Part shown: positions 12,340-55,132 of the stretch, piece after piece
Numbering within the stretch: position 1 is the first letter of the stretch
Layout: every line of letters begins with the position of its first letter
Origin: Opitutia bacterium
Lineage (GTDB): Bacteria > Verrucomicrobiota > Verrucomicrobiia > Opitutales > UBA953
DNA length: 64,000 nucleotides
Direction: 5' to 3'
NCBI GenBank assembly: GCA_947453335.1
Contig: CANGFP010000003.1
Location: 160,704 to 224,703, forward strand
Position numbers and translations under genes: made by a program
Notes under the pieces: generated by a model
Told to the model about the DNA's origin: nothing
The model's input: the letters and a program-made list of their open reading frames with translations, nothing else
Databases searched by the model: none

Positions 12340-12408
12340 CCTAGGTAACCTTACTGTTTTCGGGCATTTGACAGACCTTAGAAAAGGTACAGAGTGTAAT
12401 CCTCCACC

Positions 12409-12723: not shown

Positions 12724-12742
12724 TTCCTTAGGAAACTAGCGC

Positions 12743-12777
12743 AAAGGGCGGACCAACTGGTCCGCCCTTTTTGTTTT
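12743..12777. terminator. Bidirectional intrinsic terminator between the CPNC gene and gmhB
   Basis: The sequence is AAA-GGGCGGACCA-AC-TGGTCCGCCC-TTTTTGTTTT. It has a 10-bp perfect stem, with a U-tract on the plus strand and an A-tract upstream that gives a U-tract on the minus strand. The T-run abuts the gmhB stop. Confidence 0.8.
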
Positions 12778-25714: not shown

Positions 25715-26743
25715 ATGCGTCCCGCAGTCCGCACCCTTCTCACCGCCGCGCTCCTCGGCGCGGCCGCCCATTCCTTCGGCCAGGCCCTCATCTTCAAAGG
25801 CGGCGAACGCTGGGAAGTGAACGACCCCTTCAAGATGGACACGTCCGTCCCGCCGAAGCCGCTCATCGACCCGAAGAAGGGCACGATCAGCAGCATCAAG
25901 GGCACCGTCGTCCGCACCGTGAACGCCGGCGGCACCGACATCGAGTCCACCCGGAAGCTCTCCGAGGTCGAGCGCATCATCTGGCCCAACTCCGAGCGCC
26001 TCGCCGAAGCCCAGCTCTTCGTCAGCCGCGGCGAACCCGCCAAGGCCCTCGACAGCGTCGAACCGATCATCAAGTTCTTCGACGCGTTCAAGAAGACCCC
26101 TGGCAGCCTCTGGCTGAAGGCCTCCATGGTGAAGCTCGACGCCCTCGACCGCCTCGAGAACGACGCCGCCATCGGCTCGTTCCTCGACAACCTCGAGAAG
26201 AACGACGACGGCTCCAACCCCGAGCTGGCCAACAAGATCAAGCTCGCGCGCCTCATGCAGCGCGCCCGCCGCGGCGAACACGACGCCGTGATCGCCGACG
26301 CGACCGAACTCATCGGCAAGCTCGACGACCTCGACGTCCTCGCCCGCCTCCACCTGGTCAAGGCCGGCTCGCTCCTCGCCACCAAGAAGTACGAGGCCGC
26401 GATGAACACCTACCTGCGCATCCCGGTCTTCTACGGCTCGCAGGCCGAACACCTGCCCAAGGCCATGCTCGGCGCCGCCCGCGCCTTCCGCGGCATGGAT
26501 ACGCCGGCCACCCGCGAGCAGAAGCTCGAGGAGGTCTCCAACCGCTACCTGCGCGACCTCATCGCCACGTTCCCGGTCTCCAAGGAGGCCGAGGAGGCGA
26601 AGAAGCTCCTCCCGAAGGAGGACCGCCTCGCCGCCGAAGCCGACGCCGCCAAGATCAAGGACGCGGCCGTGCTCCCCGACGCGCCGGCCAAGCCCGACGC
26701 CCCCAAGGCCGACGGCGCCAACAACAACGACGCCAACAAGTGA
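25715..26743 (+). CDS. Secreted helical-repeat protein with a Pro/Ala/Lys-rich tail
   Basis: This is a 342-aa ORF starting 6 nt after the TPR gene. The signal peptide is MRPAVRTLLTAALLGAAAHSFGQA. It has a short beta-rich N-domain followed by TPR-like helices (KYEAAMNTYLRIPVFY). The tail is PDAPAKPDAPKADGANNNDANK. Confidence 0.7.
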   Translation: MRPAVRTLLTAALLGAAAHSFGQALIFKGGERWEVNDPFKMDTSVPPKPLIDPKKGTISSIKGTVVRTVNAGGTDIESTRKLSEVERIIWPNSERLAEAQLFVSRGEPAKALDSVEPIIKFFDAFKKTPGSLWLKASMVKLDALDRLENDAAIGSFLDNLEKNDDGSNPELANKIKLARLMQRARRGEHDAVIADATELIGKLDDLDVLARLHLVKAGSLLATKKYEAAMNTYLRIPVFYGSQAEHLPKAMLGAARAFRGMDTPATREQKLEEVSNRYLRDLIATFPVSKEAEEAKKLLPKEDRLAAEADAAKIKDAAVLPDAPAKPDAPKADGANNNDANK

Positions 26744-26788: not shown

Positions 26789-27586
26789 ATGAAGAAACTC
26801 CGCACCCCCCTGCTCACCATGGCCTTCCTCGGGCTGATGACCGTCGTCGCCTCCGCCGCCGAAGAAGGCGTCAAGGAGAAGACCCTGCTCAAGCTCTTCG
26901 AAGAAGGCGGTTGGGTCATGTACCCGATCACCCTGGCCTCCGTGGCCATGATCTGGTTCGTGGTCGACGGCTGGATCCGCACGAGCGTCAACAAGCTCTA
27001 CCCCGCCAGCCACGTCACCCAGCTCCGCGACCTCTTCCAGCGCGGCGACTACCCTGGCGCCTACGCGTTCGCCAAGAGCGCCGGTTCCCCGGTCGCCGAA
27101 GTCGTGCGCGCGGGCGTGGCCTTCACCCCGGATGGCAAGACCATGACCGAGGAAGCCATCATCTCCGAAGTCACCCGCATCCAGGGCGAGCTCATGGGCC
27201 GCGCCTCCTACCTCTCCGTCATCGGCGTCTGCACCCCGATGATCGGCCTGACCGGCACGGTGACGGGCATGATGAAGGCCTTCGACAAGCTCGGCTCCTC
27301 CGGCGTGGGCGACCCTTCCCAGCTCGCCGGCGCCATCGGCGAAGTGCTCGTGGCGACCGCCTCGGGCCTCTTCATCGCCATCCCGGCGTTCATCGCCTAC
27401 TACCTGCTCCGCAACCGCATCACCAAGGGCATCCATGACATCCAGGAGATCGTCACGGGCCTCTTCCGCGCCTTCCCCTACGAAGACGTGGCCGGCCGCA
27501 AGATCGGCGACGAGGTGATCTACGCCGCGAAGCCCGACTGGAACGCTTCGGCCGCCGTCGAAGCCCCTGAGGCCCCGCAGGCCTAA
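26789..27586 (+). CDS. MotA/TolQ/ExbB proton-channel family protein
   Basis: This is a 265-aa ORF with a cleavable-looking signal peptide (MKKLRTPLLTMAFLGLMTVVASA). The conserved channel region is LSVIGVCTPMIGLTGTVTGMMKAF ... LAGAIGEVLVATASGLFIAIPAFIAY. Confidence 0.9.
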   Translation: MKKLRTPLLTMAFLGLMTVVASAAEEGVKEKTLLKLFEEGGWVMYPITLASVAMIWFVVDGWIRTSVNKLYPASHVTQLRDLFQRGDYPGAYAFAKSAGSPVAEVVRAGVAFTPDGKTMTEEAIISEVTRIQGELMGRASYLSVIGVCTPMIGLTGTVTGMMKAFDKLGSSGVGDPSQLAGAIGEVLVATASGLFIAIPAFIAYYLLRNRITKGIHDIQEIVTGLFRAFPYEDVAGRKIGDEVIYAAKPDWNASAAVEAPEAPQA

Positions 27587-27619
27587 GGTCCTTCCCACCC
27601 CTAGACCCACACACGAACA

Positions 27620-28060
27620 ATGGCAGGCGGAGGCGGAGGCGGAGACGGGGAACCTGAGTTCCAGGTGGCGCCGATGATCGACGTCCTCCTGGTGCTGCTG
27701 ATCTTCTTCATGTCGATCACCTCGGCCCAGGTGCTGAAGGTCGACAAGAACATCGCCCTCCCCGTGGCTTCCCACGGCGTGAAGCGCGACGACAAGGCCG
27801 CGGCTGGCCTGATCAACATCTCCTGGGACAAGAACACGGGCCAGGCCAAGTACAAGCTCGACGACCGCGAGCTCGACGTGAACGACAAGGACGGCATCGC
27901 GAAGGAGCTCAAGGACCGCAAGGGCACCAACGAGAAGTTCCGCCTGCTCATCCGCGCCGACCGCCAGTGCCACGCGAAGTACATCTCGAAGGCCCTCGAA
28001 TGGGGCGCCGAGGCCGGCATCGACAACATCGCCTTCTCCGGGCTCAACCGCGAAGAATAA
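27620..28060 (+). CDS. ExbD/TolR biopolymer transport protein (copy 1)
   Basis: This is a 146-aa ORF. The TM carries the invariant Asp (FQVAPMIDVLLVLLIFFM). The periplasmic domain includes LLIRADRQCHAKYISKALE. Confidence 0.88.
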   Translation: MAGGGGGGDGEPEFQVAPMIDVLLVLLIFFMSITSAQVLKVDKNIALPVASHGVKRDDKAAAGLINISWDKNTGQAKYKLDDRELDVNDKDGIAKELKDRKGTNEKFRLLIRADRQCHAKYISKALEWGAEAGIDNIAFSGLNREE

Positions 28061-28063
28061 GCC

Positions 28064-28507
28064 ATGAAACAAGCCCCTCAAGAGGCCCCGGCCGACGCCG
28101 GCTTCCAGATCGCCCCGATGATCGACGTGGTCTTCGTGATCATGCTCTTCTTCATGGTGATGGCCGGCGCCGTCAAGGTGGAGCACGAGCTCAAGACGAC
28201 CCTTCCCGGCAACGCCGAGACGGCCAAGGAGACCGAGATGCCCGACGAGATCACCATCGGGGTCTCCGAGAACGGCACGGTCACCATCAACGAGGACCCG
28301 GTCGGCCAGCCGAACGACAAGGCCCTCGAGAACCTGTACAACGAGATGATGAAGATGGCCGCCGCGGCCAAGCAGTCCAAGACGAAGCTGCTCATCACCG
28401 TCCAGGCCGAGGAGGCCGCGAAGTACGAGCGCGTGATCAACGTGCTCGACGTGCTGGCCCGCGCCGAGATCAACAACGTGACCTTCGCGGTCGCGGAGCC
28501 GGAATAG
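28064..28507 (+). CDS. ExbD/TolR biopolymer transport protein (copy 2)
   Basis: This is a 147-aa ORF. The TM carries the Asp (FQIAPMIDVVFVIMLFFM). The periplasmic domain includes LLITVQAEEAAKYERVINVLD. Confidence 0.88.
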   Translation: MKQAPQEAPADAGFQIAPMIDVVFVIMLFFMVMAGAVKVEHELKTTLPGNAETAKETEMPDEITIGVSENGTVTINEDPVGQPNDKALENLYNEMMKMAAAAKQSKTKLLITVQAEEAAKYERVINVLDVLARAEINNVTFAVAEPE

Positions 28508-41797: not shown

Positions 41798-43543
41798 ATG
41801 GCCGACGAACCCTCTTACGTCTACGGTCAGGGCCCGGGAAGCAAACGGAGCCGGCGGATGCTGCTGGGCCTGGTCATCGTCGAGCAGAAGGGCTATCACG
41901 ACCTCAGCTACCGTCCGAACTGGCCGCGCCTGGCCTGGGTGCTGCCGGTGACGGCCTTGGCCGGGTGGCTGCTCAGCGCCGAGGCCTACTACTTCAAGGA
42001 ACGCTACATGGGGGGCATCTCCACCACCCGCCGCGGCGACATGTACCTGTACTTCCCGCAGTCCGTGGCGAACTGGTTCGCCAACCTGCCCCTCACGAAG
42101 GAGGAGGTCCGCCTCCGCGAGCGCGCGAACATCCTCCGGAGCCGCGACGAGTACGGCCGCGTCGCCCATCTCCAGCACAAGGGCGAATACTTCGTCACCG
42201 TCGCCAAGGCCGCCCTCGCCCGCCAGGACTACGCGGAGTTCTCCAAGTACATCGGCACGGGCGCCAACCTCGCGCCGAAGAACCTCGAAGCCCAGCGCCT
42301 CTGCGCCGACCTCTATTTCGCGTTCGGCCGGCCGCTCGATGCGTACCAGATCCTGGAGGAGTCCCTGGAGTTCTCGCTCCAGGACCAACCGCACTTCCGC
42401 TCCTTCCTCTACCGGAGCTTCATGCTGGACCAGGACCAGCGCATCATCGATTGCGCCAAGAAGTACCTGCCCATGCCCGGCCTCGACCCAGGGATCCGCA
42501 GCGACCTCCTGATCGCCCAGACCCAGGCGAACTTCCTCCGCGGCAACTACGCCGAGACCTCCCGCCTCATCCGCGAGCACCAGCTCGACCGCACGCCGGA
42601 GGGCTTCCTGCTCAAGTGCCAGGTGCTCTGGGAAACCGGTGAACGCACCGAAGCCCTGCGGCTGCTGGACGCCGCGACCAGCGCCTACCCCGGCGTCAGC
42701 CGCCTGCTGGAGCTGAAGGCGAAATGGCTGAAGGAGAACGGCAACCTCGCGGGCGCGCGCGATTGCCTCGATCTGCTCATCATCAAGGACCCCGGCAATC
42801 CCGGTCCGGTCATCCAGTCGCTCTTCCTCCTGCCCGGTCCGGAGAACGCCGCCAAGCGCGACGCCATCGTGGCGAAGCTGCTGCGCGACCACGGCCGCAA
42901 CGACCAGGCCATGCTGGAGCTGGCCCAGTACGCCAACGACAGCCTGCAGCCTGCCCTGACCGGCCGGCTCCTCCAGTGGGCCGACGACCATCGCTTCCCG
43001 ACGCGCCTCAAGTTCGCGCTCACGCACGCCGAATGCCTCATCAACGCGGACCAGGCCCACGCGGCGGTCATGCTGATCGAGGGGCTCCTCCGCCAAAGCG
43101 ACCGCGAGCAATGGATGAACGAGACCCGCATCGCCTTCGACGCGCTGAGGACGATCGGCTACTTCGCCGACGGCCAACCGGAGATCGGGCTCATCAACCT
43201 GCGGCGCCTGATGCAGAACAAGAACGTCCCGCCGCAGCTCCTCGTCGCCTCGGGCCGCAAGCTCATCGCCGCCAAGCGCTTCGTGGAGGCCAACGAGATG
43301 CTCATCGCGGCGCACCTGCAGAACGAGTCCAACCAGTCCATCCTGCTGCAGATCGTGCAGCTCAAGCTCGCCCACCCCGAGATCGCCGGCGACCTCGAGA
43401 CCTACCTGCGGCGCCTGATGGCCACGCGTAAGCCGCCGCGCGACGTCCTCGAGGCGGCCCTGCGCTGCGTGGGCTCCGACACTTTCCTGTTCTCGGGCGA
43501 CCGCGAGCGGCTGCTGTCCGACCTCGAGAAACTTCTCAACTAG
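41798..43543 (+). CDS. Membrane protein with a TPR-like helical-repeat domain, function unknown
   Basis: The first ATG is at 41798; the ORF-track start at 41786 is a TTG. The TM is WPRLAWVLPVTALAGWLLSA. It is followed by helical repeats (YAEFSKYIGTG, PLDAYQILEESLEF, RTEALRLLDAA). Confidence 0.65.
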   Translation: MADEPSYVYGQGPGSKRSRRMLLGLVIVEQKGYHDLSYRPNWPRLAWVLPVTALAGWLLSAEAYYFKERYMGGISTTRRGDMYLYFPQSVANWFANLPLTKEEVRLRERANILRSRDEYGRVAHLQHKGEYFVTVAKAALARQDYAEFSKYIGTGANLAPKNLEAQRLCADLYFAFGRPLDAYQILEESLEFSLQDQPHFRSFLYRSFMLDQDQRIIDCAKKYLPMPGLDPGIRSDLLIAQTQANFLRGNYAETSRLIREHQLDRTPEGFLLKCQVLWETGERTEALRLLDAATSAYPGVSRLLELKAKWLKENGNLAGARDCLDLLIIKDPGNPGPVIQSLFLLPGPENAAKRDAIVAKLLRDHGRNDQAMLELAQYANDSLQPALTGRLLQWADDHRFPTRLKFALTHAECLINADQAHAAVMLIEGLLRQSDREQWMNETRIAFDALRTIGYFADGQPEIGLINLRRLMQNKNVPPQLLVASGRKLIAAKRFVEANEMLIAAHLQNESNQSILLQIVQLKLAHPEIAGDLETYLRRLMATRKPPRDVLEAALRCVGSDTFLFSGDRERLLSDLEKLLN

Positions 43544-44447
43544 CCGGCGTCGGGGCCGGGCGGTCGGTGAGGTCGAAGTTGGCGGCCGCGCCGAGGCGCG
43601 TGCCGTCGGGCAACCAGGCGCCGCGGCTGCAGCCTTGGCGGATGAGCTCCTCGGCTTCGGACGGAGACTGCACCGCCACGGCCATCGCGAGGCCGGTCGC
43701 CTCCAAGGCGCCCGAGGCAAGGGCCCGGACCGGCGCGGGCAAGGTGACGCATTGGCCGGTACGCGGGTCGACGAACTGCGTCTGCTGGCGTTCGTTGGAT
43801 TTGCTGGCGAGGGCGAAGCGGCAGAGGTTCATCTCCTTGTCCTTGCCGAGACCCATCCGCCAACCGTTGGCGTCGCCGGGCGGGTCCAAGGCCAAGGCCA
43901 CGCCACCGCCGGCCAGGATGAGCGCGCGGTGGATGCCCCAGCTGTTCTCGAGCATATCGGAGATGCGGTCCACGGCGAGGCCCCGGATGACGGCTCCGAA
44001 GTCGACGCTGGCGCCGGCCTTGACGCAGGTGAACTCCGTGCCCTCGAGCTTGAAGGAGGCCCCGCGGAAATCGTTGTAGACCTTGGTCCATTCGGCGTCG
44101 TCGGGATTGAACGACGGCGTGCCGCGGGCCTCCCAGTAGCGGAAGAGCGCGCCAGCGGTGACGTCGAAAGCGCCTTGGGATTCCTCCTTCAAGGCCTGGG
44201 AGAAGTTCCAGAGCGTCTGGAAGTGTTCGCCCACGGCCACCAGGGCGCCGTCGGGCATGCCGTTCACGCCGGCCAGCGGACCGCTGTCGTGCCGGGCGTC
44301 GACCTGGAAGTCGAGCTCGTCGATCGAGTAGAAGATCGATTCCGCGGCGCGCTCGGCGTACGAGCGGTCCTCATCCGCGATGCGGATCCAGAAGCGCGTG
44401 CCCATGGCCTCATGGGAGAAGTTGTGGATGACGTTGCGTTCGCTCAT
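43536..44447 (-). CDS. apbE: FAD:protein FMN transferase (ApbE family)
   Basis: The internal ATG is at 44447 (MSERNVIHNFSHEAMGTRFWIRI). ApbE blocks are AFDVTAGALFRYW and ASVDFGAVIRGLAVDR. I see no signal peptide or lipobox. Confidence 0.85.
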   Translation of the reverse strand: MSERNVIHNFSHEAMGTRFWIRIADEDRSYAERAAESIFYSIDELDFQVDARHDSGPLAGVNGMPDGALVAVGEHFQTLWNFSQALKEESQGAFDVTAGALFRYWEARGTPSFNPDDAEWTKVYNDFRGASFKLEGTEFTCVKAGASVDFGAVIRGLAVDRISDMLENSWGIHRALILAGGGVALALDPPGDANGWRMGLGKDKEMNLCRFALASKSNERQQTQFVDPRTGQCVTLPAPVRALASGALEATGLAMAVAVQSPSEAEELIRQGCSRGAWLPDGTRLGAAANFDLTDRPAPTPAS

Positions 44448-44463
44448 GGGAAAAGGGGCTGCA

Positions 44464-45900
44464 TCACCATTCGCCGAACATGTGGGGGATGTCCACCTTG
44501 TTGGTGGTGTCGACCAGCACCCAGTACCATTCGTCCCGGCGGAGACGTAGCCTAAAGGTCTGGTAACCTGGTACGGCCGGACGGCTGTCATCATGGGCCA
44601 CCAAGATACGGACGGGCGCGCGCTCGGCCCCATCGAACTCGCCGTAACCGACTTGAAACGCCCGCAGGTAATAGGGTAACGGCCAATAGTGCCCACCGTC
44701 GACGGCGACATAGAACGGTTTTCCGGGATGCGCCTTCTGCCACGCCTGCTGGTACTCGCCGACGTCCTTTGCCAAAAGCACTCCGCGGAGGCTGGTCGGC
44801 GTATGGGGCTTCAGCGTGAACGCGCAGGCGAGGACAAAGACCGTGGCGGCGGCGAAGGACGCAGCCCACGTGAACACGCGGCGCTCCGCCAACAAAGGCC
44901 AAGCCAGCGACAGGCTCAGGCAGACAGGCAGGAAGAGCAGCCACGGGGTCTTGTAGGGCAAGGCCAGGTGGAAGAGGAAGCATCCGACGGAGGCGGCGAG
45001 AGGGACGTCGTTGGCCGAACGCTGGCCACCACGGACCAGCCGGATGGCCACGAGAGCCGCCAGCCAGAGCCCGACGGCCCACCAGTAGCCGGGATTGGTT
45101 TGGATAAGCGTGTCGTCATTGCCGGACGCGACCGCGAACGAACGCCAGAACTGATGTCCCCACGCGACCATGCCTGCCCAGTCGGTGAAGAGCACGGTCT
45201 GCAGGCTGATCCAGACGACGAGAGCTCCGACCGTGGCCCAAGCGACGCGACGCCAGGTCAGGGTCTCGCGAGCGAAGACGAGCAGCGCCAGCAGCAAGAT
45301 GCCCAAATAAGCCACCGCCGTCACCTTGCAGGCCAAGGACAGGCCGAAGGCTGCGCCGGAGAACACGGCCCACCACGCAGGGCGGACAGCCTCAGCCGAA
45401 CGATTCCACAGGAGCACACCCCACACGAAGCCTGCCACGAGCAACGGCTCCTGGATGAAGTAGTGTCCAAAGTAACAGCCGGCCGAGCCCATCAGCAGCA
45501 CGAAGGCAGCCATCCAACGGGTCGGCCAAGCGACATCGCGCAGGCAGAACGGCGCCGCGCAGACCAGCAGGTAGAAAAGGAACGGCACGAACCGGAGATC
45601 GCCTTCGCTCGCGTCATCGAACTTCAGGCCGCGTACGGCGAACACCGTCTTGGTCGCGACCGCCAAGGCCGGGCCATGGAACTTGTCCTGGTTCTCGCTA
45701 TACGGGATCCCGGAGGCCGAATCCTTCGCCAAGGACCACTGCACGGCCTCGTCGGCATGGACGCCTGGCGGGATATCCTGAAGCCCGTCTGGGCTAACCG
45801 GGGAATGCATGATCATGCCGACCCCCGTCACCAAGATCATCCACCCAAGCACCAGCAGGATGGCCAGTCCGACCCAAAGGACTTTGGCGAAACGCCCCAT
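44464..45900 (-). CDS. Polytopic membrane protein, GT-C-type glycosyltransferase-like (ArnT/PMT/TIGR03663-like)
   Basis: This is a 478-aa ORF with about 10 hydrophobic segments followed by a soluble C-terminal domain (FYVAVDGGHYWPLPYYLRAF). The family assignment comes from the architecture only. Confidence 0.6.
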   Translation of the reverse strand: MGRFAKVLWVGLAILLVLGWMILVTGVGMIMHSPVSPDGLQDIPPGVHADEAVQWSLAKDSASGIPYSENQDKFHGPALAVATKTVFAVRGLKFDDASEGDLRFVPFLFYLLVCAAPFCLRDVAWPTRWMAAFVLLMGSAGCYFGHYFIQEPLLVAGFVWGVLLWNRSAEAVRPAWWAVFSGAAFGLSLACKVTAVAYLGILLLALLVFARETLTWRRVAWATVGALVVWISLQTVLFTDWAGMVAWGHQFWRSFAVASGNDDTLIQTNPGYWWAVGLWLAALVAIRLVRGGQRSANDVPLAASVGCFLFHLALPYKTPWLLFLPVCLSLSLAWPLLAERRVFTWAASFAAATVFVLACAFTLKPHTPTSLRGVLLAKDVGEYQQAWQKAHPGKPFYVAVDGGHYWPLPYYLRAFQVGYGEFDGAERAPVRILVAHDDSRPAVPGYQTFRLRLRRDEWYWVLVDTTNKVDIPHMFGEW

Positions 45901-45903
45901 GTG

Positions 45904-46326
45904 TCAGACTTCGCCGAAGTGGCGCTGCAGGGCCTGCTTGATCTCGAGGGGCACCAAGGCGGCGGACATCGGGCCCTGCCCTTCCCGCCACGCATAGACG
46001 GTCGTGAGCTTGCCCTTGGCGACGGCGCGTTCGCCGACATGGGCGTCGAAGAGCCAGACGAGCTTCTTGTCGCCGATCTCGGCGGGCGTCAGCGCGACCT
46101 TGACGACGTCCTCGCGGTAGATCGGGGAAAGGAAGTCGCACTCCACGCGGACGCGCGGGAAGCCGGTCAGCTTGGCGCCTTCGGCCTTGAGGAACGGCAG
46201 GTGCAGGTGGCGGAAGAGGGCCTCCTCGGTGGCCTCGACCCAGAAGAAGATGGTCGAGAAATGCACGATTCCGGCGGCGTCGGTGTCGGAGAAATGCGCG
46301 CGGTATTCGGCCGTGAAGGTCACCAT
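45904..46326 (-). CDS. Acyl-CoA thioesterase, 4HBT/YbgC hot-dog family
   Basis: The matching segment is YRAHFSDTDAAGIVHFSTIFFWVEATEEALFRHL, which fits the YbgC/FcoT-type DTD..G.V.H motif. The ATG is at 46326; the ORF-track start at 46338 is a TTG. Confidence 0.85.
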   Translation of the reverse strand: MVTFTAEYRAHFSDTDAAGIVHFSTIFFWVEATEEALFRHLHLPFLKAEGAKLTGFPRVRVECDFLSPIYREDVVKVALTPAEIGDKKLVWLFDAHVGERAVAKGKLTTVYAWREGQGPMSAALVPLEIKQALQRHFGEV

Positions 46327-46371
46327 GACCTTATGCAAGCGAAGTCCCCTGCTGGTGCAACCGCCAAGGCG

Positions 46372-47439
46372 TCAACGAGCCCGGCGACCCGACCGCAACC
46401 AATGGACGTCGACCGCGGCCCCGCCGGAAGCCTCCACGCAGCGCTGCAGGAAGCCCTGGGGAGGCTCCTGGATGGAGAAGAGGTAAAGGCGAGGCCCCTG
46501 CCCCTGCTCCGCCTTGCCGAAGGCCTGCAACCACTGCTCCTGCCAACGCCCCTTCGGCAAGGCATGTCCGACCCGACGGAAGGAGCTATCGGAATAGATG
46601 AGCGAGGGATGGCCTTTCTGCTTCTCGTCATAGACGCGGATGCCGTCCTGGAAATCCGAGAAGACCACCAACGCGTCGTACTTCTCGACCAGCAGCCGGT
46701 CGAGCCAAGCCCCCAGCGAACCTTTTTCGCAGGCGGCGCGCAGACGGGCCTGCAGCTGCCGACCGGCAGGCGTCAGTTCCGCCTCCACCGTCTGGGTCGG
46801 AGCCTCGGTCAGCCGCGGCGGCTCCCGATGGAAGTTCCGACCGTGCACGATCGTCTCCTCCAGCGCCACGACCCGGGCCCCGTCGAACTGGAAGACGTCG
46901 GCGTCCGGGTATTGCTTCCGGATCTCCGCCGTGACGCGGGCCAAGTACGGCCGCATCGAACCGGAGCAGTCCAGGTAGACGGCGACATGCTGGGCGCGGA
47001 TCGTCGCCCCCATGACGGGTTTGCCGACGAAGCGTTGGGCAGCCCCCGCGGGGCCACCGAACCCTTGGCCGCGACCGAATCCCTGCCCGATGGCGCCGCT
47101 ACCCTTCGCCCCGGCCGCGGGACCCGCGGCGTTCCCGGCCACCGGGGGCAGGCTGGGCAACGTCACGGCCGCGTTCGGATTATCCACCGTCAGCCGTGCG
47201 TGAGGCCGGAAGTTCGCCTTCGGCTGGGCGCGCACCGTGTGCTCCTTTTCATCGGCGGCGCCTTGTCCGGCGGGCGCCACGAAGACCGACGGGCCATCCG
47301 GACGCGCCGACGGCGGCGGGGACCGGAACACGATCCAACATGCGGCCAAGACCAGGCCGACGTGCAGCAGCAGGGACGCCAGCAAGCTGCGCCATGAGCG
47401 CGCCCGCGGGCGCTCGCGCGTGAAGGAAGGAGGAGCCAT
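46372..47439 (-). CDS. TonB/TolA-like SxxxH-anchored protein with a VWA-like C-terminal domain (paralog B, 355 aa)
   Basis: The TM is SLLASLLLHVGLVLAACWIVF, which contains S-x-x-x-H. It has a Gly-rich linker (GSGAIGQGFGRGQGFGG). Conserved blocks shared with the upstream gene are FVGKPVMGA, AVYLDCSGSM, YDALVVFSDFQDG, GQGPRLYLFS and CVEASGG. Confidence 0.75.
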   Translation of the reverse strand: MAPPSFTRERPRARSWRSLLASLLLHVGLVLAACWIVFRSPPPSARPDGPSVFVAPAGQGAADEKEHTVRAQPKANFRPHARLTVDNPNAAVTLPSLPPVAGNAAGPAAGAKGSGAIGQGFGRGQGFGGPAGAAQRFVGKPVMGATIRAQHVAVYLDCSGSMRPYLARVTAEIRKQYPDADVFQFDGARVVALEETIVHGRNFHREPPRLTEAPTQTVEAELTPAGRQLQARLRAACEKGSLGAWLDRLLVEKYDALVVFSDFQDGIRVYDEKQKGHPSLIYSDSSFRRVGHALPKGRWQEQWLQAFGKAEQGQGPRLYLFSIQEPPQGFLQRCVEASGGAAVDVHWLRSGRRAR

Positions 47440-47530
47440 GCCACCGCAGTGGCCCAGGCACCGTCCAGCGACAAGCCGACGGACCTAAGGGCCATTCCCT
47501 GAGGCCACGACCCGGCGGAACCTTGGAGGC

Positions 47531-48880
47531 TCAGCGGGCTGGCTTGAAGGTCTTCGGGGCGACCGGATCGGTCGACATCGCCTTGTCGCCGGCCATCGCC
47601 GGATCATCCATCTCCGGCGGCGGCTGGCCACCCGTGCGGAGCCAGGTGACCATCTTGACCTGCCCTCCGGAAGCCGCGACGCATTTGGCGAGCAGCGGCT
47701 GGGGCTCCTGTTCGGTCGAGAAGAGGTACAGACGCGGACCTTGGCCGTTCTTGGCGGCCGCGAACGAATTGACCCACTCCTGCTCCCAGGCCTTCTCGGC
47801 CGGCTTGCGGTTGTCGGCCCCGCGGGCGATGTCGGTGCGGATGCCGTCGTAGTAGACGATCGGGAAGCCGCCGCCCTGGACGTTCCTGTCGGCCTTCTCG
47901 CCCTTCATGCGGTACTGGGTCACGCCATCCTCGAAATCGGAGAACAGCACCAGCGCGTCGTAGCTCTTCTGCATGCGCATGATGTCGAGCCAAGCCCCCA
48001 CGGAGCCCTGCTTGAAGTTGTCGTCGTACTTCTTGAAGATGTTCTTGCCCGAGGCCGTCAGCTTCTTGACGTCGGTCTCGCGCGCACCCGTGCCGAAGGT
48101 GCGGATCGGCTGGCCCTTGAAGCGCTCGCCGCCCATGACCACGCCGTCCTGCACATAGGTGAAGATCCCGTTGTACATGTAGACATCGGCGTCCGGGAAC
48201 TGCCGGCGGATGGCCTCCTCGACCTTGTCGAGGTAGGACGTCATGGAGCCCGACGCGTCCATGTAGACGGCGATGCGTTGGGCGAAGATCTTGGCGCCCA
48301 TGACGGGTCGTCCGACGAAGTTCTTGCCGTTGCCGACGCCGATGCCGATGCCGTTGCCGATGCCGCCGCCGGCGCCGCCGCCGAAGCCCTTGGAGGAGCC
48401 GCCGGACAGCATCCCGGAGAGCATCGAGGCGTTGCTGGAGACCTGCATGTCGGGCAACGCGATGGTCGCGGTGGAGCTCTTGGACGTGATGCGCGCGGCG
48501 TTCTTCGCCAACGTCTTCACGTTCTTCATCTTCACCTTGGTCTCGTAGTTCTTGGCCTTGTCGCCGGCGCTGCCGCCGCCCGCGCCGGTCGCGAACGCGT
48601 TCGGGTCCTTCTTCGCGGAGTCCTTGGTGACCGAGATGATCAGGAAGGCCGCGATGAGGACCAGGACCGTGTGGATCGCCACGGAGACGATGAAACCCTC
48701 GCCGCCGAAACGGCTCCAGAACGACCGCTTGAGCCGACCGGACCCGAGGGTCGGATCCTCGAGCTCGAACGCCTCTTCCTCATACCCCTCCGTCGCCGCC
48801 AAGTCATCCTCGGGCAGCGGCGGAGGCAAAGCCTCATGGGACTCCTCGGGCGGAGGAGGCGGGGGGGTAGCGTCGGTCAT
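47531..48880 (-). CDS. TonB/TolA-like SxxxH-anchored protein with a VWA-like C-terminal domain (paralog A, 449 aa)
   Basis: The N-terminus is Pro/Glu-rich. The TM is GFIVSVAIHTVLVLIAAFLII, which contains S-x-x-x-H. It has a Gly-rich linker (GFGGGAGGGIGNGIGIGVGNG). Conserved blocks are FVGRPVMGA, AVYMDASGSM, YDALVLFSDFEDG, GQGPRLYLFS and CVAASGG. A GGAGG lies 9 nt upstream of the ATG. Confidence 0.8.
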   Translation of the reverse strand: MTDATPPPPPPEESHEALPPPLPEDDLAATEGYEEEAFELEDPTLGSGRLKRSFWSRFGGEGFIVSVAIHTVLVLIAAFLIISVTKDSAKKDPNAFATGAGGGSAGDKAKNYETKVKMKNVKTLAKNAARITSKSSTATIALPDMQVSSNASMLSGMLSGGSSKGFGGGAGGGIGNGIGIGVGNGKNFVGRPVMGAKIFAQRIAVYMDASGSMTSYLDKVEEAIRRQFPDADVYMYNGIFTYVQDGVVMGGERFKGQPIRTFGTGARETDVKKLTASGKNIFKKYDDNFKQGSVGAWLDIMRMQKSYDALVLFSDFEDGVTQYRMKGEKADRNVQGGGFPIVYYDGIRTDIARGADNRKPAEKAWEQEWVNSFAAAKNGQGPRLYLFSTEQEPQPLLAKCVAASGGQVKMVTWLRTGGQPPPEMDDPAMAGDKAMSTDPVAPKTFKPAR

Positions 48881-49016: not shown

Positions 49017-49094
49017 TGCAGGGTGGAGCAGCCCGGTTAGCTCGTCAGGCTCATAACCTGAAGGTCGTAGGTTCAAATCCTACCCCTGCACCCA
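49017..49094 (+). tRNA. tRNA-Met (anticodon CAU), with encoded CCA; a tRNA-Ile2 (lysidine) identity cannot be excluded
   Basis: The cloverleaf was folded by hand. The acceptor is TGCAGGG/CCCTGCA and the D stem is GAGC/GCTC. The anticodon stem is TCAGG/CCTGA with loop CTCATAA. The T arm is GTAGG-TTCAAAT-CCTAC. The discriminator is C, followed by CCA. It lacks the three consecutive G-C pairs of an initiator anticodon stem. Confidence 0.9.
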
Positions 49095-49234: not shown

Positions 49235-49281
49235 AAAAAACAGCCGGCTTGCATAGGGGTATGCAAGCCGGCTCCTTTTTT
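49235..49281. terminator. Strong bidirectional intrinsic terminator (tRNA-Met on the plus strand, pilC on the minus strand)
   Basis: The sequence is AAAAAAC-AGCCGGCTTGCATA-GGGG-TATGCAAGCCGGCT-CCTTTTTTG. It has a 14-bp perfect stem with U-tracts on both strands. Confidence 0.8.
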
Positions 49282-49362: not shown

Positions 49363-50610
49363 TCAGCCGCCGCCGGTCATCTTGGTGATGAGCGCGATGA
49401 GCGGGAGGAACATCGCGAGCACGATCGTGCCGACGACCACGGCCAGGAAGACGATGAGCACCGGCTCGATGATCGAGGTCAGCGCCGTGACGGCGTTGTC
49501 GACCTCTTCGTCGTAGATGTCGGCGACGCGGTTGAGCATCTCGGGCAGCTGGCCGGTCTCTTCGCCGACCTGGATCATGGAGGTGACCATCTGCGGGAAG
49601 ACGCCGGTCTGCTCGAGCGGCACGGACAGCGGCTCGCCGTCGCGCACGCGGTCATGCACGCGCTCGAGGGACTTGGCGATGACGACGTTGTCGAGCGTGT
49701 CGCGGGTGATCGTGATCGACTGGAGGATCGGCACGCCGGAGGCCATCAGCGTACCGAAGGTGCGCGCGAAGCGGGAGACCGAGACGATCTGCACGAAACC
49801 GCCGACCTTGGGGAGGCGGAAGACGATGCGGTCGAAGATCTCCTTGCCCTTCTCGGTCGCGAGCCAGACCTTCAGGCCGTAGTAGATGCCGAAGACGGCG
49901 ACCGGGGTGACATACCAGAACTCGGTCAGCGCCTTGGAGATCGCGACGACGAACTGGGTCAGGGCCGGCATGTTGGTCTTCTGGCCGTCGAGGAGCTTCT
50001 GGAAGGACGGCACGACCTTCACCATGAGGATGTACACGATGACCACGGCGACCGTCACGACGACGCCCGGGTAGACCATCGCGGACTTCACCTTCTTCTG
50101 GATGCGCTGGGCCTTCTCGCGGAACTTGGCCAGACGGTCGAGGACCTTGTCGAGCACGCCGCCCGCTTCGCCCGCCTTCACCATGTTGATGAAGAGACGG
50201 TCGAAGACCTTGGGGTGGGCCTGGAGGGCCTCGGAGAGGTTGTTGCCCTGCGAGACGCTTTCGGCGATGTTCGCGAGGACTTCCTTGAACGCCGGGTTGC
50301 GCTCCTGCTTGTGGATGAGCTCGAGGGCGCGGAGGAGCGGCAGGCCGGCGACGATGAGCGTCGCGAGCTGGCGGGTCATGATCGTGACCTCCTCCTCGGA
50401 GACCTGGGCGCCGAAGCTGAAGCGGGACTTCTTCGGGGCGGAGGCGGAGGCGACCACGGCCTTGGCGGCGCCGCCGTCGCCGGCGAGCGTGGTCACCATG
50501 AGGCCGCGGGCCATGAGCTTCTGGCGCGCCTGCTCGTCGCTGGCGGCTTCGATCTTACCGGAGGTCTGCGCGCCGTTGCGGTCGATCGCGCTGTACTTGT
50601 ATTCGGGCAT
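49363..50610 (-). CDS. pilC: Type IV pilus / T2SS platform protein (GspF/PilC family)
   Basis: This is a 415-aa ORF with two T2SSF repeats (LATLIVAGLPLLRALE ... and TFGTLMASGVPILQSITI ...). It has three TM segments and the C-terminal MFLPLIALI. Confidence 0.93.
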   Translation of the reverse strand: MPEYKYSAIDRNGAQTSGKIEAASDEQARQKLMARGLMVTTLAGDGGAAKAVVASASAPKKSRFSFGAQVSEEEVTIMTRQLATLIVAGLPLLRALELIHKQERNPAFKEVLANIAESVSQGNNLSEALQAHPKVFDRLFINMVKAGEAGGVLDKVLDRLAKFREKAQRIQKKVKSAMVYPGVVVTVAVVIVYILMVKVVPSFQKLLDGQKTNMPALTQFVVAISKALTEFWYVTPVAVFGIYYGLKVWLATEKGKEIFDRIVFRLPKVGGFVQIVSVSRFARTFGTLMASGVPILQSITITRDTLDNVVIAKSLERVHDRVRDGEPLSVPLEQTGVFPQMVTSMIQVGEETGQLPEMLNRVADIYDEEVDNAVTALTSIIEPVLIVFLAVVVGTIVLAMFLPLIALITKMTGGG

Positions 50611-50631
50611 GGGGATGGGGTTTGGAAAGGG

Positions 50632-52314
50632 TTAGGTGTACTTGAGGACTTCCTCGATGGTCGTGTGGCCGTCGAAGATGCAGCGGAGGCCGTCCTCGCG
50701 GAGGGGGCGCATGCCGACCTCGATGGCCTTCTGCTTCAGGACGAGGGTCGGAGCGCGCTGCGTGATCATCGTGCGGAGCGAGTCGCTGATCGTCATCAGC
50801 TCGAACAGGCCTTGGCGGCCGCGGTAGCCGGAGCGGCTGCACTCGGGGCAGCCCTTGCCGAAGTAGAACTTCTTGTTGGCGATCTCGAGGGCGTCGACGT
50901 CGAGCATGTTGATGACTTCCTTGTCGGGCTCGTAGGCCGTGCGGCAGCCCTTGCAGATGCGGCGCAGGAGGCGCTGGGCGAGCACGCCTTCGAGGGAGGC
51001 GGAGATGAGGAACGGCTCCAGCCCCATGTCGATGAGTCGCGTCACGGCGCCCGGGGCGTCGTTGGTGTGGAGGGTCGAGAGCACGACGTGGCCGGTCAGG
51101 GAGGCCTGCACGGCGATCTGGGCGGTCTCAAGGTCGCGGATTTCCCCCACCATGATGGTGTCGGGGTCCTGACGGAGGAAGGAGCGCAGCGCCGCGGCGA
51201 AGGTGAGGCCGACCTGGTGGTTGATCGGGACCTGCATGATGCCTTCGACCTCGTACTCGACGGGGTCCTCGGCGGTGAGGATCTTGACGTCCTCGGTGTT
51301 CACCTCGCGGAGCGCGGAGTACAGGGTGGTCGTCTTGCCGGAACCGGTCGGGCCGGTGACGATGAAGATGCCGTTCGGGCGGTTCACCATCGCGCGGATG
51401 CCTTCCTTGATGTCCTCCTGCATGGAGAGGGCGTCGAGGCTCAGGTTGACGACGGTCTTGTCGAGGATTCGGAGCACCACGGATTCGCCGAACTGGGTCG
51501 GGAGCGTGGACACGCGCAGGTCGATGGCGCGGCCGCCGATGGTCGTCTTGATGCGGCCGTCCTGCGGGATGCGGCGTTCGGCGATGTTCAGCGCGGAGAG
51601 GACCTTGACGCGGGCGATGACGGCCGAGGCGAGGTTCTTGGGCGGCGGGGCCATCTCGTACAGCGAGCCGTCGATGCGGTAGCGGATGCGGAACTGGTCC
51701 TCGAAGGGCTCGAAGTGGATGTCGGAGGCCTTGGCCTTGACGGCTTCCTGCAGCACGAGGTCGACGAAGCGGATGATCGGGGCCTGGCTCGCGGCGGCGG
51801 CGACGTCCTCGTCGTTCGTGGCGGCGGCGGCGCCTTCCTCGAACTCGCCGAGGAGGTCCTCCATCGAGGTCGCGGAGGCTTCGCCGTAGACGCGGACGAC
51901 GGCCGTCTCGACGGCGTCGGGGTCGGCCACGGCCAGCTCGATGTCGCGCTTCAGGATGAACGTCAGTTCGTTGATGGCCGCGGAATTGAAGGCGTCCTTG
52001 GCGACGAGGGTGAGCTTGCCGGCCTCGTCGGCGACGGGCACGACCATGTACTTGTGCGCCTGCGCGGGCTTGAGCGTGCGGGTCAGCTCCTCGCCGAGGT
52101 CGGCGGGGATGGCCGAGTAGTACTGGACCTGGAGGTGGTCGGCGATGGCCTGGAGCAGGCCCGGACGGTCGGCGAGGCCGGCGTCGATCAGGCTGTCGGC
52201 GTAGGACTTGCCGGTGCTCGCGTGCGACTCCCAGATCTCGTCGGACTGGGTCTGGTCGACGAGGCCGGCTTCGAGCGCGATGTCGCGGATGACGTCACTG
52301 TGGTCTTCAAACAT
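50632..52314 (-). CDS. GspE/PilB-family secretion ATPase (second assembly-type paralog)
   Basis: This is a 560-aa ORF. Walker A is [15 protein letters not shown]. The Asp box and Walker B are [10 protein letters not shown] and IMVGEIRD. The His box is [14 protein letters not shown]. The tetra-Cys motif is CKGC...[12 protein letters not shown]. The N-terminal helical motifs are [13 protein letters not shown] and [15 protein letters not shown]. Confidence 0.93.
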
Positions 52315-52335
52315 GGGGAATGGTCGGGTAAGGGG

Positions 52336-53409
52336 TTATTTCTTGGCGGCCCCGGGATTGAGGCGGGCGCGCATCATCTCGGAGTCCTGGCAGTAGTTCA
52401 TGACTTCCTCCTCGGAGACCTTGCCCTGGTTGAACAGGGCGAGGAGGTCGGAATCGAGCGTGCGCATGCCGCGGCCGCCGCCGGTCTCGATGTCGGAGGT
52501 GATCTGGAAGGTCTTGTTCTCGCGGATCTTGGCCGCGATGCCGTCGGTGCGGACCATGATCTCGTACGCGGCGACGCGCTTGTCGTCCACGGTGCGCAGG
52601 AGGCACTGGGAGATGACGGAGACGATGGAGGAGGCGAGCTGGACGCGGATCTGGTCGCGCGCGCCGGCGGGGAAGGCGTCGAGGATGCGGTCGACGGTGC
52701 GGGCGGCGCCCGTGGTGTGCAGCGTGCCGAAGACGAGGTGGCCGGTCTCGGCGGCCGACACGGCTGCCTCGATGGTCTCGAGGTCGCGCATCTCGCCGAT
52801 GAGGATGACGTCGGGGTCCTGGCGGAGCGCGGCGCGCACGCCCTCGGCGAAGGTCGGCACGTCGTTGTGCACCTCGCGCTGGGTGACGACGCAGCCCTTG
52901 TGGGCGTGGTAGTACTCGATGGGGTCCTCGATCGTGACGATGTGGCCGTCCTCGTTCTCGTTGATCCAGTTGACCATCGAGGCGAGGGTCGTCGACTTGC
53001 CGGAACCGGTCGGGCCGGTGACGAGGATGAGCCCGCGCGGACGGCGCAGGAGGTCCTTGATCATCGGGGGCAGGCGGAGCTGCTCGAGGGTGAAGATCGC
53101 CGAGGGGATCAGGCGGAGCACCATGCCAAGCACGCCCTTGCCGCGGTAGACGTTGACGCGGAAGCGCGCCTTCTTGTGGAAGGAGAAGCCGAAGTCGCAG
53201 CCGCCGTCGCGCTTCAGGCGCTCCAGCTGGTCCGACGGGGCGATGGAGGCGACCAGGGCCTGGGTGTCTTCAGGCGTGAGGGCCGGGCCTTCGATCGAGA
53301 CGACGCTGCCGCTGACGCGGAGGCTGGGCGCGCGGCCGACGTGCAGGTGCAGGTCGGAGGCGCCATTCTCGATCATGGCTTCCAGGAGCTGGTTGATCTC
53401 GTACGCCAT
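52336..53409 (-). CDS. pilT: Twitching-motility retraction ATPase PilT
   Basis: This is a 357-aa ORF with no N-terminal GspE_N domain and no Cys motif. Matching segments are [45 protein letters not shown] and [11 protein letters not shown]. It also has the PilT-type IAAKIRENK helix. Confidence 0.95.
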
Positions 53410-53416
53410 GGCGCGC

Positions 53417-55132
53417 TCAGATGACGTCGTCGGCGACGGTGGCGCCCATGACCTCCTCGATCGTGGTCATGCCGGAGGCGACCTTGCGTTGGCCGTCCTC
53501 GCGCATGGTGCGCATGCCGGCCTCGCGGGCCTTGCGGCGGAGGTCGACGAGGTTCGAGCCGGAGTAGATCATCTCCTGGATCTCCTCGGTGATGACGAAG
53601 AGCTCGAAGACGCCGCGGCGGCCCTTGTAGCCGCGGTCGCCGCACTTGGCGCAGCCGGCGCCCTTCATCGGGGTCGCCCCGGCGATGTCCTGCTCGGTCA
53701 TGCCGATGGTGTAGAGCTCCTTCGCGGTCGGCTTGTAGGGTTGCGCGCACGACTGGCAGACGCGGCGCACGAGGCGCTGGGCCAGCGCGCCACGGAGCGC
53801 GGCGGACACGAGGAACGGCTTCACGCCGATGTCGACGAGACGGGTGACGGCGCTGACGGAGTCGTTGGTGTGGAGGGTCGAGAACACCATGTGGCCGGTG
53901 AGGGCCGCGTTGATGGCGATTTCGGCGGTCTCCAGGTCGCGGATTTCGCCGATCATGACGATGTTCGGCGCCTGGCGGAGCATCGCGCGGAGCGCGGCGG
54001 CGAAGGTCATGCCGACGTCGCGCTTCACCTGCACCTGGTTGATGCCGGCCATCTGGTACTCGACCGGGTCTTCGACGGTGATGATCTTGCGGTCGGGCTT
54101 GTTGATGTAGTTGAGCGCGGAATAGAGCGTGGTCGACTTGCCGGAACCGGTCGGACCGGTGACGAGGAAGACGCCGTCGGAGCCGGAGATGAGGCCCTGG
54201 AACTTGGCCTGGTCGTCCGCGAAGAAGCCGAGCTCGGGGAGGCCGAGCTTGAGGCCTTCCTTGTCGAGGATTCGCATGACGATCGACTCGCCGTAGACGG
54301 TCGGGAGGACGGACACGCGCAAGTCGATGTCGCGGCCGCCGGTGCGGGCCTGGATGCGGCCGTCCTGCGGGATGCGCTTCTCGGCCAAGGAGACCTCGGC
54401 CATGAGCTTGAGGCGAGAGATGACGGAGGCCTGCAGGCGCTTGGGCGGGCCCTTCATCTCCTGGAGCACGCCGTCGATGCGGAAACGCACGCGGAAGCGC
54501 TTCTCAAGGGGCTCGAGGTGGATGTCGGACGCCTTGCGGCGGATGGCGTCGACGATCAGCGAGTTGACGTACCGGATGATCGGGGCGTCGTCTTCCTTGG
54601 CCTCCCCGCCCTGCGGGAGCTCGACGGAAAGACCGTCCTCCGAAGCCTTGCCGAAGACGTCCTCGTACGAGACGTTGACCTGGCCGCCGCTGTAGCAGCG
54701 GGCGATCGCGTTGCGGAGCTCGTCCGGGGGGGCGAGCTTCGGGTTCAGCGTGAGCTTCAGGACGCGCGAAAGGGAATCGAGGGTCTCGGTGTCGAGCGGG
54801 TCGGCGATCGCGACGAGGAGCTCGACGCCGTCCATCTGCAGCGGCAGGAGGTTCGAGCGCTCCGCCTGCTCGCGGCTGACGAGCTTCAGGAGCTCATCGG
54901 CCGGGGAGACCTGCGAAAGGTCGACGACTTCCATGTCGAACTCGACGCCGAGGGCCTCGGTGATCTTCGCCCAGGTGACCTTGCCGGTCTCGACCAGTTT
55001 GGCCAAGGCGAGGGTATCGGGATTGGCATCCGGGGTCGCGGCCACGGCCGCGCGGGCCTCGGCGACGTCGCCCGCGGAGACGAGGGCTTTGTCCTGGATG
55101 AATTGGATGACGAAATCGTCGGCGGTCGTCAC
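53417..55132 (-). CDS. pilB: Type IV pilus assembly ATPase PilB (GspE family)
   Basis: This is a 571-aa ORF with a GTG start. The T2SSE_N domain includes [44 protein letters not shown]. Other matching segments are [27 protein letters not shown] and [14 protein letters not shown]. The tetra-Cys motif is CQSC...[12 protein letters not shown]. Confidence 0.93.

Follow-up and report, generated by a model that had tools for sequence, protein, structure and literature searches.

Two adjacent genes, here called A and B, were analysed in a 64,000-nucleotide stretch of DNA from a freshwater Opitutales bacterium (Opitutia bacterium, GenBank assembly GCA_947453335.1, contig CANGFP010000003.1, positions 160,704 to 224,703; the whole stretch is referred to below as the window). 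Their products are probably, at odds that we put at roughly 0.6, inner-membrane-anchored and periplasm-spanning 'vWA force transducers', that is, analogues of TonB and TolA, and would be the relocated transducers of a motor encoded in the same window. A and B were read in this way because they carry the N-terminal module of such transducers and because a motor of the cognate type, with no transducer of its own, is encoded at a distance of 18 kb. To our knowledge, TonB and TolA are the only well-understood means by which Gram-negative bacteria deliver the proton energy of the inner membrane to the periplasm and the outer membrane. It was not until 2025 that a third class of transducers, whose head is of a metal-dependent adhesion type, was proposed. 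If read as members of this class, A and B are a new, large and unannotated Opitutales subfamily of it, notable for an intact pattern of the metal-ion-dependent adhesion site (MIDAS) and for the separation from the motor. The value of the A/B locus is that it defines a testable predicted system, not an established mechanism.

Architecture of A and B and the Ser/His anchor

The open reading frames (ORFs) of A and B were found as an initial annotation of the sequence had described them, as two co-directional paralogous genes for proteins of 449 and 355 aa, with a gap of 91 nt between them (Table 1). The two proteins showed 35% identity over 356 columns in BLASTP (E 3e-62) and could be aligned from the transmembrane (TM) helix to the C-terminus. 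All TM strings, Gly-rich linkers and C-terminal blocks quoted in that annotation were present. The proposed layout of an anchor, a linker and a domain of about 230 aa agreed with the AlphaFold2 models, in which the head comprised 220 to 230 aa. The model of A was built from an alignment of 81 sequences from both paralog families, which was also used to determine conservation.

In a six-frame scan of the whole window, no ORF of at least 120 aa other than A and B had Ser-x3-His (S-x3-H) in a hydrophobic segment. The motif was kept in 117 of 120 A-type and 115 of 120 B-type proteins (232 of 240 homologs), a degree of conservation in orthologs on which the initial annotation had made its proposal depend. 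In the 81-sequence alignment H70 was invariant, and S66 and L73 were at least 90% conserved. The occurrence of S-x3-H in A and B is more than chance. The claim of a TonB/TolA-type anchor was therefore sound with respect to Ser-x3-His. The Leu and Ser of the canonical SHLS pattern (S-x3-H-x6-L-x3-S) are not at the canonical spacing. At H+7 and H+11, the equivalents of L27 and S31 of TonB, Ala77 and Ile81 are present in A and Ala33 and Val37 in B. The pattern conserved in the A/B family is S-x3-H-x2-L-x3-A. The TolA model TIGR02794 matched B at positions 2-57, that is, at the N-terminus only, with E 0.13 and 11.5 bits against a cut-off of 59.45.

The helix is followed by the linker with its two conserved motifs. 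The post-TM motif of A (D-P-x-x-F-A-T-G) aligned with residues ~55-60 of the Tichowtungia transducers (D-A-x-F-S-G), which are termed the stator box in the supplementary information of PMC12204202. By analogy, the motif of A may act as a motor/stator box; no beta-strand is predicted at this position. The second motif, which A and B both have as R(I/L)T...LP(D/S)(M/L), was also found, as R(I/V)T(S/T)..A..LP(D/E)(M/L)P, in all motor-adjacent transducers described below. When the N-terminal modules of A, B, the Tichowtungia transducers and the motor-adjacent proteins were aligned, the motifs followed each other in identical succession. A profile search of PDB sequences returned artificial Gly-Ser linkers as its sole matches and was uninformative.

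The N-terminal module is shared with published, predicted vWA force transducers

The initial annotation had regarded the combination of such an anchor with a VWA-like head as an architecture not known to be characterised. It is experimentally uncharacterised, yet not new: 'vWA force transducers' with an SHLS transmembrane helix, encoded in Tichowtungia beside a motor of the type TPR-tolQ-tolR-tolR, were described in 2025, as a prediction and with no phenotype reported (Mol Biol Evol 2025;42:msaf138, PMC12204202). According to the same study, they occur in Proteobacteria, Planctomycetes, Verrucomicrobia, Bacteroidetes and Rhodothermaeota, and a transducer gene directly downstream of a TPR gene, one tolQ-like and two tolR-like genes is frequent, but not obligatory, in the Planctomycetota-Verrucomicrobiota-Chlamydiota (PVC) superphylum. 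The sequences of two tandem transducers of Tichowtungia aerotolerans are printed in its supplement. The printed protein was recovered at 100% identity, together with its family and its locus (CP047593.1), in which the gene order is TPR904 - 110 aa - vWA781 - TPR938 - 262 aa - ExbB - ExbD - ExbD - vWA476 - vWA474. The 781-aa protein, whose gene lies upstream of the motor with a large TPR gene on either side (L089:809-3154), is a third transducer paralog and belongs to a subfamily of its own, of ~760-790 aa, in Kiritimatiellales.

When the profiles of the A/B and Tichowtungia families were compared by hhalign, the probability was 96.9% (E 1.3e-10) over residues 61-214 of A. The alignment took in the helix with Ser/His, the post-TM D-x-x-F-x-G, R(I/M)T...A...LPDM, the Gly-rich part, 'NF(V/F)G' and beta1; the pattern S-x3-H-x2-L-x3-A is the same in both families. 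On these profile comparisons, homology to the Tichowtungia transducers is supported for the coupling module, not for the heads.

Like the Tichowtungia class, A and B combine a single Ser-x3-His TM helix with a disordered ~100-aa linker that has a post-TM motif, and with a vWA-type head. They also form a tandem pair of diverged paralogs in the PVC superphylum, and a TPR-x-ExbB-ExbD-ExbD motor of the partner type is present in their window. They differ in that they do not lie directly after the motor module, in their complete DxSxS MIDAS motif, which is degenerate in the Tichowtungia family (D-A-(S/N)-K-x-M), and in their heads of ~230 aa instead of 320 aa, for which there is no Pfam or NCBIfam model.

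The motor module in the window and its relatives

The ExbB/ExbD genes at 26789-28507, to which the initial annotation had pointed, are indeed motor genes, but they do not form a generic Ton motor. They belong to a specific TPR-x-ExbB-ExbD-ExbD module, and the idea of a motor-coupled anchor was strengthened, as in other PVC bacteria modules of this type come with such transducers. The module was collinear with that of Tichowtungia and similar to it position by position. ExbB showed 34% identity to the vWA-associated ExbB of Tichowtungia (E 3e-38), and the best matches of ExbD1 and ExbD2 were the Tichowtungia ExbD1 (31%, E 4e-14) and ExbD2 (39%, E 2e-30), respectively, while the TPR protein of 1109 aa showed 31% identity to TPR938 (E 8e-22). 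When the ORFs of the window were compared with the Tichowtungia locus by tblastn, the motor module, the TPR protein and one unrelated radical-SAM gene were found, and A and B were not.

The module is flanked upstream by greA-like and methyltransferase genes and downstream by thrC and thrB on the opposite strand, and is therefore without a transducer of its own. Apart from A and B, neither an S-x3-H anchor nor a TonB-like gene was seen in the 64 kb of the window. The motor genes and A/B, 18 kb apart, are on opposite strands.

A scan of metagenomes with an ExbD2 alignment yielded 80 motor loci, 58 of them close (ExbD2 at least 73% identical) and 22 distant (51-60%). The close loci had the order GreA-like - methyltransferase - TPR - 342 aa - ExbB - ExbD1 - ExbD2. 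In the 42 of them that extended at least 1 kb further, the next gene was thrC, on the opposite strand. Matches to the A/B or Tichowtungia hidden Markov models (HMMs) were present in none of the 58. The separation of A/B from the motor is fixed across the clade of the window. This is evidence that such predicted transducers can be separated from their motor, and they would then escape surveys that rely on gene neighbourhood.

The 22 distant loci kept the order of the module wherever the upstream sequence sufficed. In 7 of the 11 with at least 1 kb of downstream sequence, one or two genes directly after ExbD2 matched the A/B HMM with E values of 1e-11 to 2e-19. These matches were confined to positions 10-176 of the 388 positions of the HMM, which is the N-terminal module. 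The heads behind it were of several kinds. A canonical Pfam VWA head was present in the first gene after ExbD2 of locus L165 and in L158, and a PA14 head in the second gene of L165 (9652-10893). Alpha-toroid heads resembling squalene cyclases and prenyltransferases were found in L163 (10405-11886), L164 (two genes, 1473-3977) and L168 (2440-4095). Judged from these alignments, the conserved unit is the motor-associated N-terminal module, and A and B carry it. That one coupling module also bears PA14 and alpha-toroid heads, and that heads are thus modular, goes somewhat past the published description.

From these findings a wider proposal can tentatively be drawn, which we regard as possible and would not call likely. 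The N-terminal module of ~150 aa (Ser-x3-His helix, F-x-G box, R(I/V)T...LP(D/E)MP and Gly-rich tether) would be the family-defining, portable 'plug' for a PVC-specific motor of TPR, Mul1B-like, ExbB, ExbD1 and ExbD2 proteins. The heads (canonical VWA, divergent MIDAS-VWA, PA14 or alpha-toroid) would be interchangeable, and Opitutales would possess one orphan motor and several dispersed transducers. The whole would be a third envelope machine driven by the proton motive force, possibly related to the glycan-uptake complex of the Akkermansia mucin-utilisation locus MUL1. A parallel for one motor with several transducers is provided by single ExbBD complexes that serve several TonBs.

The suggested relation to MUL1 comes from the 342-aa secreted protein of the module. 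It matched the NCBIfam model 'Mul1B family putative transporter subunit' with E 3.4e-5, and the protein at the corresponding position in L165 (5709-6758) did so with E 2e-5. The cut-off is 75 bits; the match in the window had 23 bits and the two matches were of 23-24 bits. These two sub-threshold matches, in distant orthologs, hint that the motor module is related to MUL1. The MUL1 products of Akkermansia muciniphila were reportedly described by Davey et al. in 2023 as a 'periplasmic protein complex'. In PMC12570417 mul1A (Amuc_0544) of Akkermansia is described as a mucin-transport gene, and PMC13174399 reports no MUL1 synteny for aquatic Akkermansiaceae. If the weak link to Mul1B holds, the system could have a bearing on polysaccharide uptake in Verrucomicrobiota, which are of importance for freshwater carbon turnover and in the gut.

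The head domain and its MIDAS pattern

The initial annotation had proposed a VWA-like fold with a MIDAS-like DxSxS, and the structural models favour this. Foldseek gave VWA domains as the top matches for both proteins, although with weak scores. With the full-length model of A, the best match was the VWA domain of CLCA1 (E 6.8e-3, probability 0.93). CLCA1 was also the best match of the B head, for which the list was rich in VWA domains (Rpn10, ANTXR1/2, vWF-A1, the TFIIH p34-p44 complex, Sec23, Ku) with E values of at least 0.018. The probability of the CLCA1 match was 0.90-0.93 across A and B. In the models beta1 leads into DxSxS and beta4 into SDFxDG, with a conserved Thr between the two motifs, which is the MIDAS arrangement. 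D208, S210, S212, D315 and D318 were invariant in the 81 sequences, and T269 was at least 90% conserved. Of the motif DxSGSM as first quoted, D and both Ser residues were conserved but the Gly was not. Many A-type proteins have K, N, R or Q as the fourth residue, and the metal-site motif is accordingly D-x-S-x-S-M.

As the annotation had stated, the C-terminal domain is unlike TonB_C and TolA domain III: A and B had no Pfam or NCBIfam match to TonB_C (PF03544 / TIGR01352), even at E values up to 10. Scans of Pfam and NCBIfam assigned A and B to no family. Among 62 distant relatives, at most 5 reached Pfam VWA, VWA_2 or VWA_4 at E <0.01. We conclude from sequence and models that A and B have a vWA-like head that has diverged strongly and keeps an intact MIDAS pattern, with a predicted metal site.

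Table 1. Features of the A/B locus and the motor module, in coordinates of the window (TM, transmembrane; pLDDT, predicted local distance difference test; pTM, predicted template modelling score)
Feature	Position (nt)	Strand	Size or residues	Remarks
Gene A	47531-48880	-	449 aa	N-tail, TM anchor, disordered linker, vWA-like head, short C-tail
A, cytoplasmic N-tail			1-59
A, single TM helix	48623-48703	-	60-86	helix in AlphaFold2 model; aligns with S31/H35 helix of Tichowtungia transducers
A, Ser66-x3-His70	48671-48685	-	66-70	TM string GFIVSVAIHTVLVL; followed by conserved L73 and A77
A, Gly/Ser-rich linker	48326-48622	-	87-185	~100 aa; pLDDT <50 (predicted disordered)
A, post-TM motif	48575-48610	-	91-102	KDPNAFATGAGG; consensus DPxxFATGxGGG; candidate 'motor/stator box'
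A, linker motif	48443-48493	-	130-146	RITSKSSTATIALPDMQ; R130 invariant; L142 and P143 at least 90% conserved
A, vWA-like head	47630-48325	-	186-417	pLDDT mostly >90 over 190-417; compact alpha/beta
A, MIDAS-type D-A-S-G-S	48245-48259	-	D208-A-S210-G-S212
A, SDFEDG	47924-47941	-	S314-D-F-E-D-G319	T269 also MIDAS-type
Gene B	46372-47439	-	355 aa	architecture as A; short N-tail
B, TM helix	47323-47391	-	17-39	TM string SLLASLLLHVGLVL
B, Ser22-x3-His26	47362-47376	-	22-26
B, linker motif	47146-47196	-	82-98	RLTVDNPNAAVTLPSLP; counterpart by alignment of RITSKS...LPDM of A
B, vWA-like head	46387-47037	-	135-351	modelled alone: pLDDT 94.4, pTM 0.92
B, D-C-S-G-S	46957-46971	-	D157-C-S159-G-S161
B, SDFQDG	46642-46659	-
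TPR protein	22379-25708	+	1109 aa	first gene of the module; Pfam TPR families
Secreted TPR-like protein	25715-26743	+	342 aa	Mul1B-like, sub-threshold
ExbB/TolQ-like proton-channel subunit	26789-27586	+	265 aa	PF01618, E 5.5e-25; below the tolQ and exbB equivalog cut-offs
ExbD/TolR-like subunit 1	27620-28060	+	146 aa	NCBIfam tolR/ExbD matches
ExbD/TolR-like subunit 2	28064-28507	+	147 aa	followed by thrC on the opposite strand
gspE, pilT, gspE, gspF	49363-55132	-		upstream set
Bidirectional terminator (predicted)	49242-49273			perfect hairpin with 14-bp stem; T-runs on both strands
tRNA-Met(CAT)	49017-49094	+		between gspF and A
4HBT thioesterase	45904-46338	-		Pfam 4HBT, 24.1 bits against 20.6
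Multi-pass membrane protein	44464-45900	-	478 aa	no Pfam or NCBIfam match
ApbE	43536-44450	-		coordinates of the Pfam-matching part

Proposed mechanism and comparison with TonB/TolA and TPH-vWA systems

If A and B are force transducers, the Ser/His helix would dock on the ExbB pentamer, at its rim, while the post-TM F-x-G motif would contact the periplasmic domains of ExbD1 and ExbD2, both by analogy with ExbBD-TonB and TolQRA. Proton flow through the motor would then pull on the tether, and the MIDAS head would grip, via its metal ion, an acidic residue of a partner in the periplasm or the outer membrane. The two different transducers may pair with the two different ExbD subunits. Our guess as to the physiological output is envelope-associated import or remodelling.

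A single-pass helix with an invariant His is a hallmark of TonB and TolA, and tonB is often unlinked from the motor genes exbBD (PMC12204202). A and B resemble these proteins in the weak match of B to the N-terminus of TolA and in being unlinked from the motor, as tonB often is. Unlike TonB and TolA, they lack TonB_C and TolA-III domains, the Leu and Ser positions in their SHLS pattern are displaced, and their spacer is Gly/Ser-rich and predicted to be disordered instead of Pro-rich or helical. Their head would bind through a MIDAS metal site, not by beta-strand addition.

A second vWA family, the TPH-vWA pairs, is encoded beside loci with tolQ only (PMC12204202). These are also membrane-tethered vWA proteins in heterologous pairs, for which drive by a 5:2 motor is proposed. 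Their helix, however, is a trans-pore helix like that of ExbD and has a conserved Asp but no Ser/His, whereas A and B have Ser/His and no TM Asp, and the motor in the window has two ExbD subunits of its own.

Points against the transducer reading and a possible passive role

Several results weigh against A and B as motor-driven transducers. The canonical SHLS pattern is only half present, as S66 and H70 are in place but the Leu and Ser positions are not. The heads of the A/B and Tichowtungia families, when compared alone, gave no alignment (hhalign probability 3%). The scores for the vWA fold were weak: no Foldseek match of the A and B models reached E <=1e-3, and the TM-scores were 0.35-0.49. 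No Pfam VWA model was above threshold in either protein; VWA_CoxE matched the DxSGS strand of B with E 0.13 and 12.1 bits against 26.4, and A had no such match. ExbB was found within 10 kb of A/B in none of the 82 A/B loci fetched with flanks of up to 10 kb, and motors were absent from the 6 independent contexts of more distant A/B relatives. Furthermore, the motor is an orphan in 4 of the 11 distant loci as well, so that the linkage between motor and transducer appears to be loose in general. We infer the coupling of A and B to the motor by analogy, and since the window covers 64 kb of the genome, other motors or transducers may exist.

A passive role is a rival reading, which we consider unlikely. 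A and B would then be inner-membrane-tethered periplasmic vWA scaffolds or adhesins like BatA and BatB of the aerotolerance operons of Bacteroides and Leptospira, which bind a partner through the MIDAS without any motor, and Ser/His would serve oligomerisation or positioning in the membrane. That A/B-type genes are never adjacent to a motor is in line with this, and the MIDAS, being complete in its pattern, suggests metal-dependent ligand binding of the ordinary kind; the weak matches to VWA_CoxE and, in one motor-adjacent relative, to BatB point in the same direction. Like A and B, BatA and BatB are membrane-anchored bacterial VWA proteins with a MIDAS, and TPR proteins are present in Bat loci. 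However, A and B have a TonB-like anchor, no BatA_N, no MoxR or DUF58 partner, no Pfam Bat matches and no significant match to Bat proteins. Their single-pass helix with its invariant His bears the hallmark of TonB and TolA mentioned above. A and B share the entire N-terminal module of 150 aa, and not the helix alone, with proteins encoded directly behind ExbB-ExbD-ExbD, whatever head these carry, for which passive anchoring is a hard explanation.

Genes around A and B

The gene for a thioesterase, the gene for a membrane protein and ApbE follow B in the same direction with tight or overlapping spacing (43536-46338), and are probably in one operon with A and B. The thioesterase had been annotated as YbgC-type. 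This assignment failed, as TIGR02799 gave 30.5 bits against 141.35 and TIGR00051 (YbgC/FadM) 28.9 against 68.7, so that only the 4HBT fold remains. Nor did the membrane protein match any family in Pfam or NCBIfam that would justify its designation as GT-C. The ApbE annotation was confirmed by a family match.

The order gspE...gspF-A-B-thioesterase-(membrane protein)-ApbE was kept across the 82 loci wherever the flank was long enough, and the GspE-PilT-GspE-GspF set was also retained in related loci. The membrane protein was missing in L001, L018 and L020. The flanking housekeeping genes (tilS, ftsH, coaE, mutL) were equally conserved, and the gene order is therefore clade-level synteny, not a specific linkage. 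None of these neighbours was present in the 6 contexts of more distant relatives or in the context of a solo third paralog.

A role of A and B together with the downstream enzymes is improbable in our estimate, but it would be compatible with motor coupling. In this case A, B, the thioesterase, the polytopic membrane protein and the ApbE flavin transferase would take part in maturation of envelope lipids, glycans or redox components, and the heads would recruit a substrate or an enzyme. The tight or overlapping spacing and the order kept across Opitutales argue for such a pathway. The thioesterase is distantly YbgC/FadM-like, and several distant relatives of A and B are encoded near envelope-lipid genes (psd, fabG-acpP-fabF, lpxK, heptosyltransferase). 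On the other hand, the membrane protein is missing from the three loci mentioned, the cut-offs for YbgC were not reached, and no such neighbour is conserved around the distant relatives or the motor-adjacent homologs.

The upstream set encodes GspE-like (571 aa), PilT-like (357 aa), GspE-like (560 aa) and GspF/PilC-like (415 aa) proteins and is located downstream of coaE and ftsH; genes for a pilin, a secretin or PilMNO were not seen near it. Between gspF and A there is a hairpin that could serve as terminator for the tRNA transcript as well as for the convergent transcript of gspF. This terminator and the tRNA-Met gene on the opposite strand separate A from gspF, and A and B are therefore taken as a transcription unit of their own.

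A link to a type IV pilus or type II secretion system was considered for the conserved adjacency. Platforms of such machines typically include bitopic proteins with periplasmic domains, and the order GspE-PilT-GspE-GspF-A-B was present in most Opitutales loci with upstream sequence, down to about 45% identity of A. A and B as assembly-platform or alignment accessory subunits of such a machine are nevertheless very improbable, and the link was rejected, in view of the strong terminator and the opposite-strand tRNA gene, the unspecific adjacency within a region that is syntenic as a whole in close relatives (tilS, ftsH, coaE and mutL included), the 7 contexts without pilus genes (6 of distant family members and 1 of the solo third paralog), and the N-terminal-module homologs, which adjoin motors and not pili.

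Distribution of the family and further observations

More than 799 homologs of A were found, every one of them unnamed and without a Pfam domain, and 367 homologs of B, named only 'hypothetical' and from Opitutae/Verrucomicrobiota. The sources of A/B homologs were Opitutae/Opitutales and other Verrucomicrobiota metagenome-assembled genomes (MAGs), mainly from freshwater. An exhaustive search of 1.84 billion representative proteins with a head-only HMM gave 186 clusters at E <=1e-3. By this measure the A/B head family is small and lineage-restricted. For the distant relatives, the cluster records bore a single taxonomic label, 'Puniceicoccales'. Most of the full-length members of these clusters bear a '...G-x-x-x-S-x-x-x-H-x-x-L...FWVVS' helix.

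In some Opitutales lineages a third, shorter family member or fragment lies between A and B (L060, L062, L064, L070, L072, L074 and L076-L079). Its position is about 12,100-12,900 in most of these loci, 10,100-10,800 in L060, 9,200-9,900 in L076 and 2,400-3,000 in L078. Some A-type proteins, for example P0246 (660 aa), have an insertion of ~100 aa in the head. Many genomes possess an extra solo A-like paralog, 55-57% identical to A, at an unrelated locus (L023, L026, L029, L033, L034, L036, L038-L044, L056 and L058). Its neighbours in L026 were genes for a phosphonate ABC transporter, a phytase-like protein, a SASA protein and an alginate lyase, a polysaccharide-esterase/lyase surrounding that was uninformative.

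The G+C content of the window is ~68%, and the long ORFs that overlap A and B on the opposite strand are ordinary artefacts of high G+C. The MAG records L005, L023, L046 and L072 had loci of the Opitutales type under the titles 'Akkermansia muciniphila', 'uncultured Enterobacteriaceae' or 'uncultured Klebsiella'; these titles look like taxonomic mislabelling of bins from freshwater or other metagenomes.

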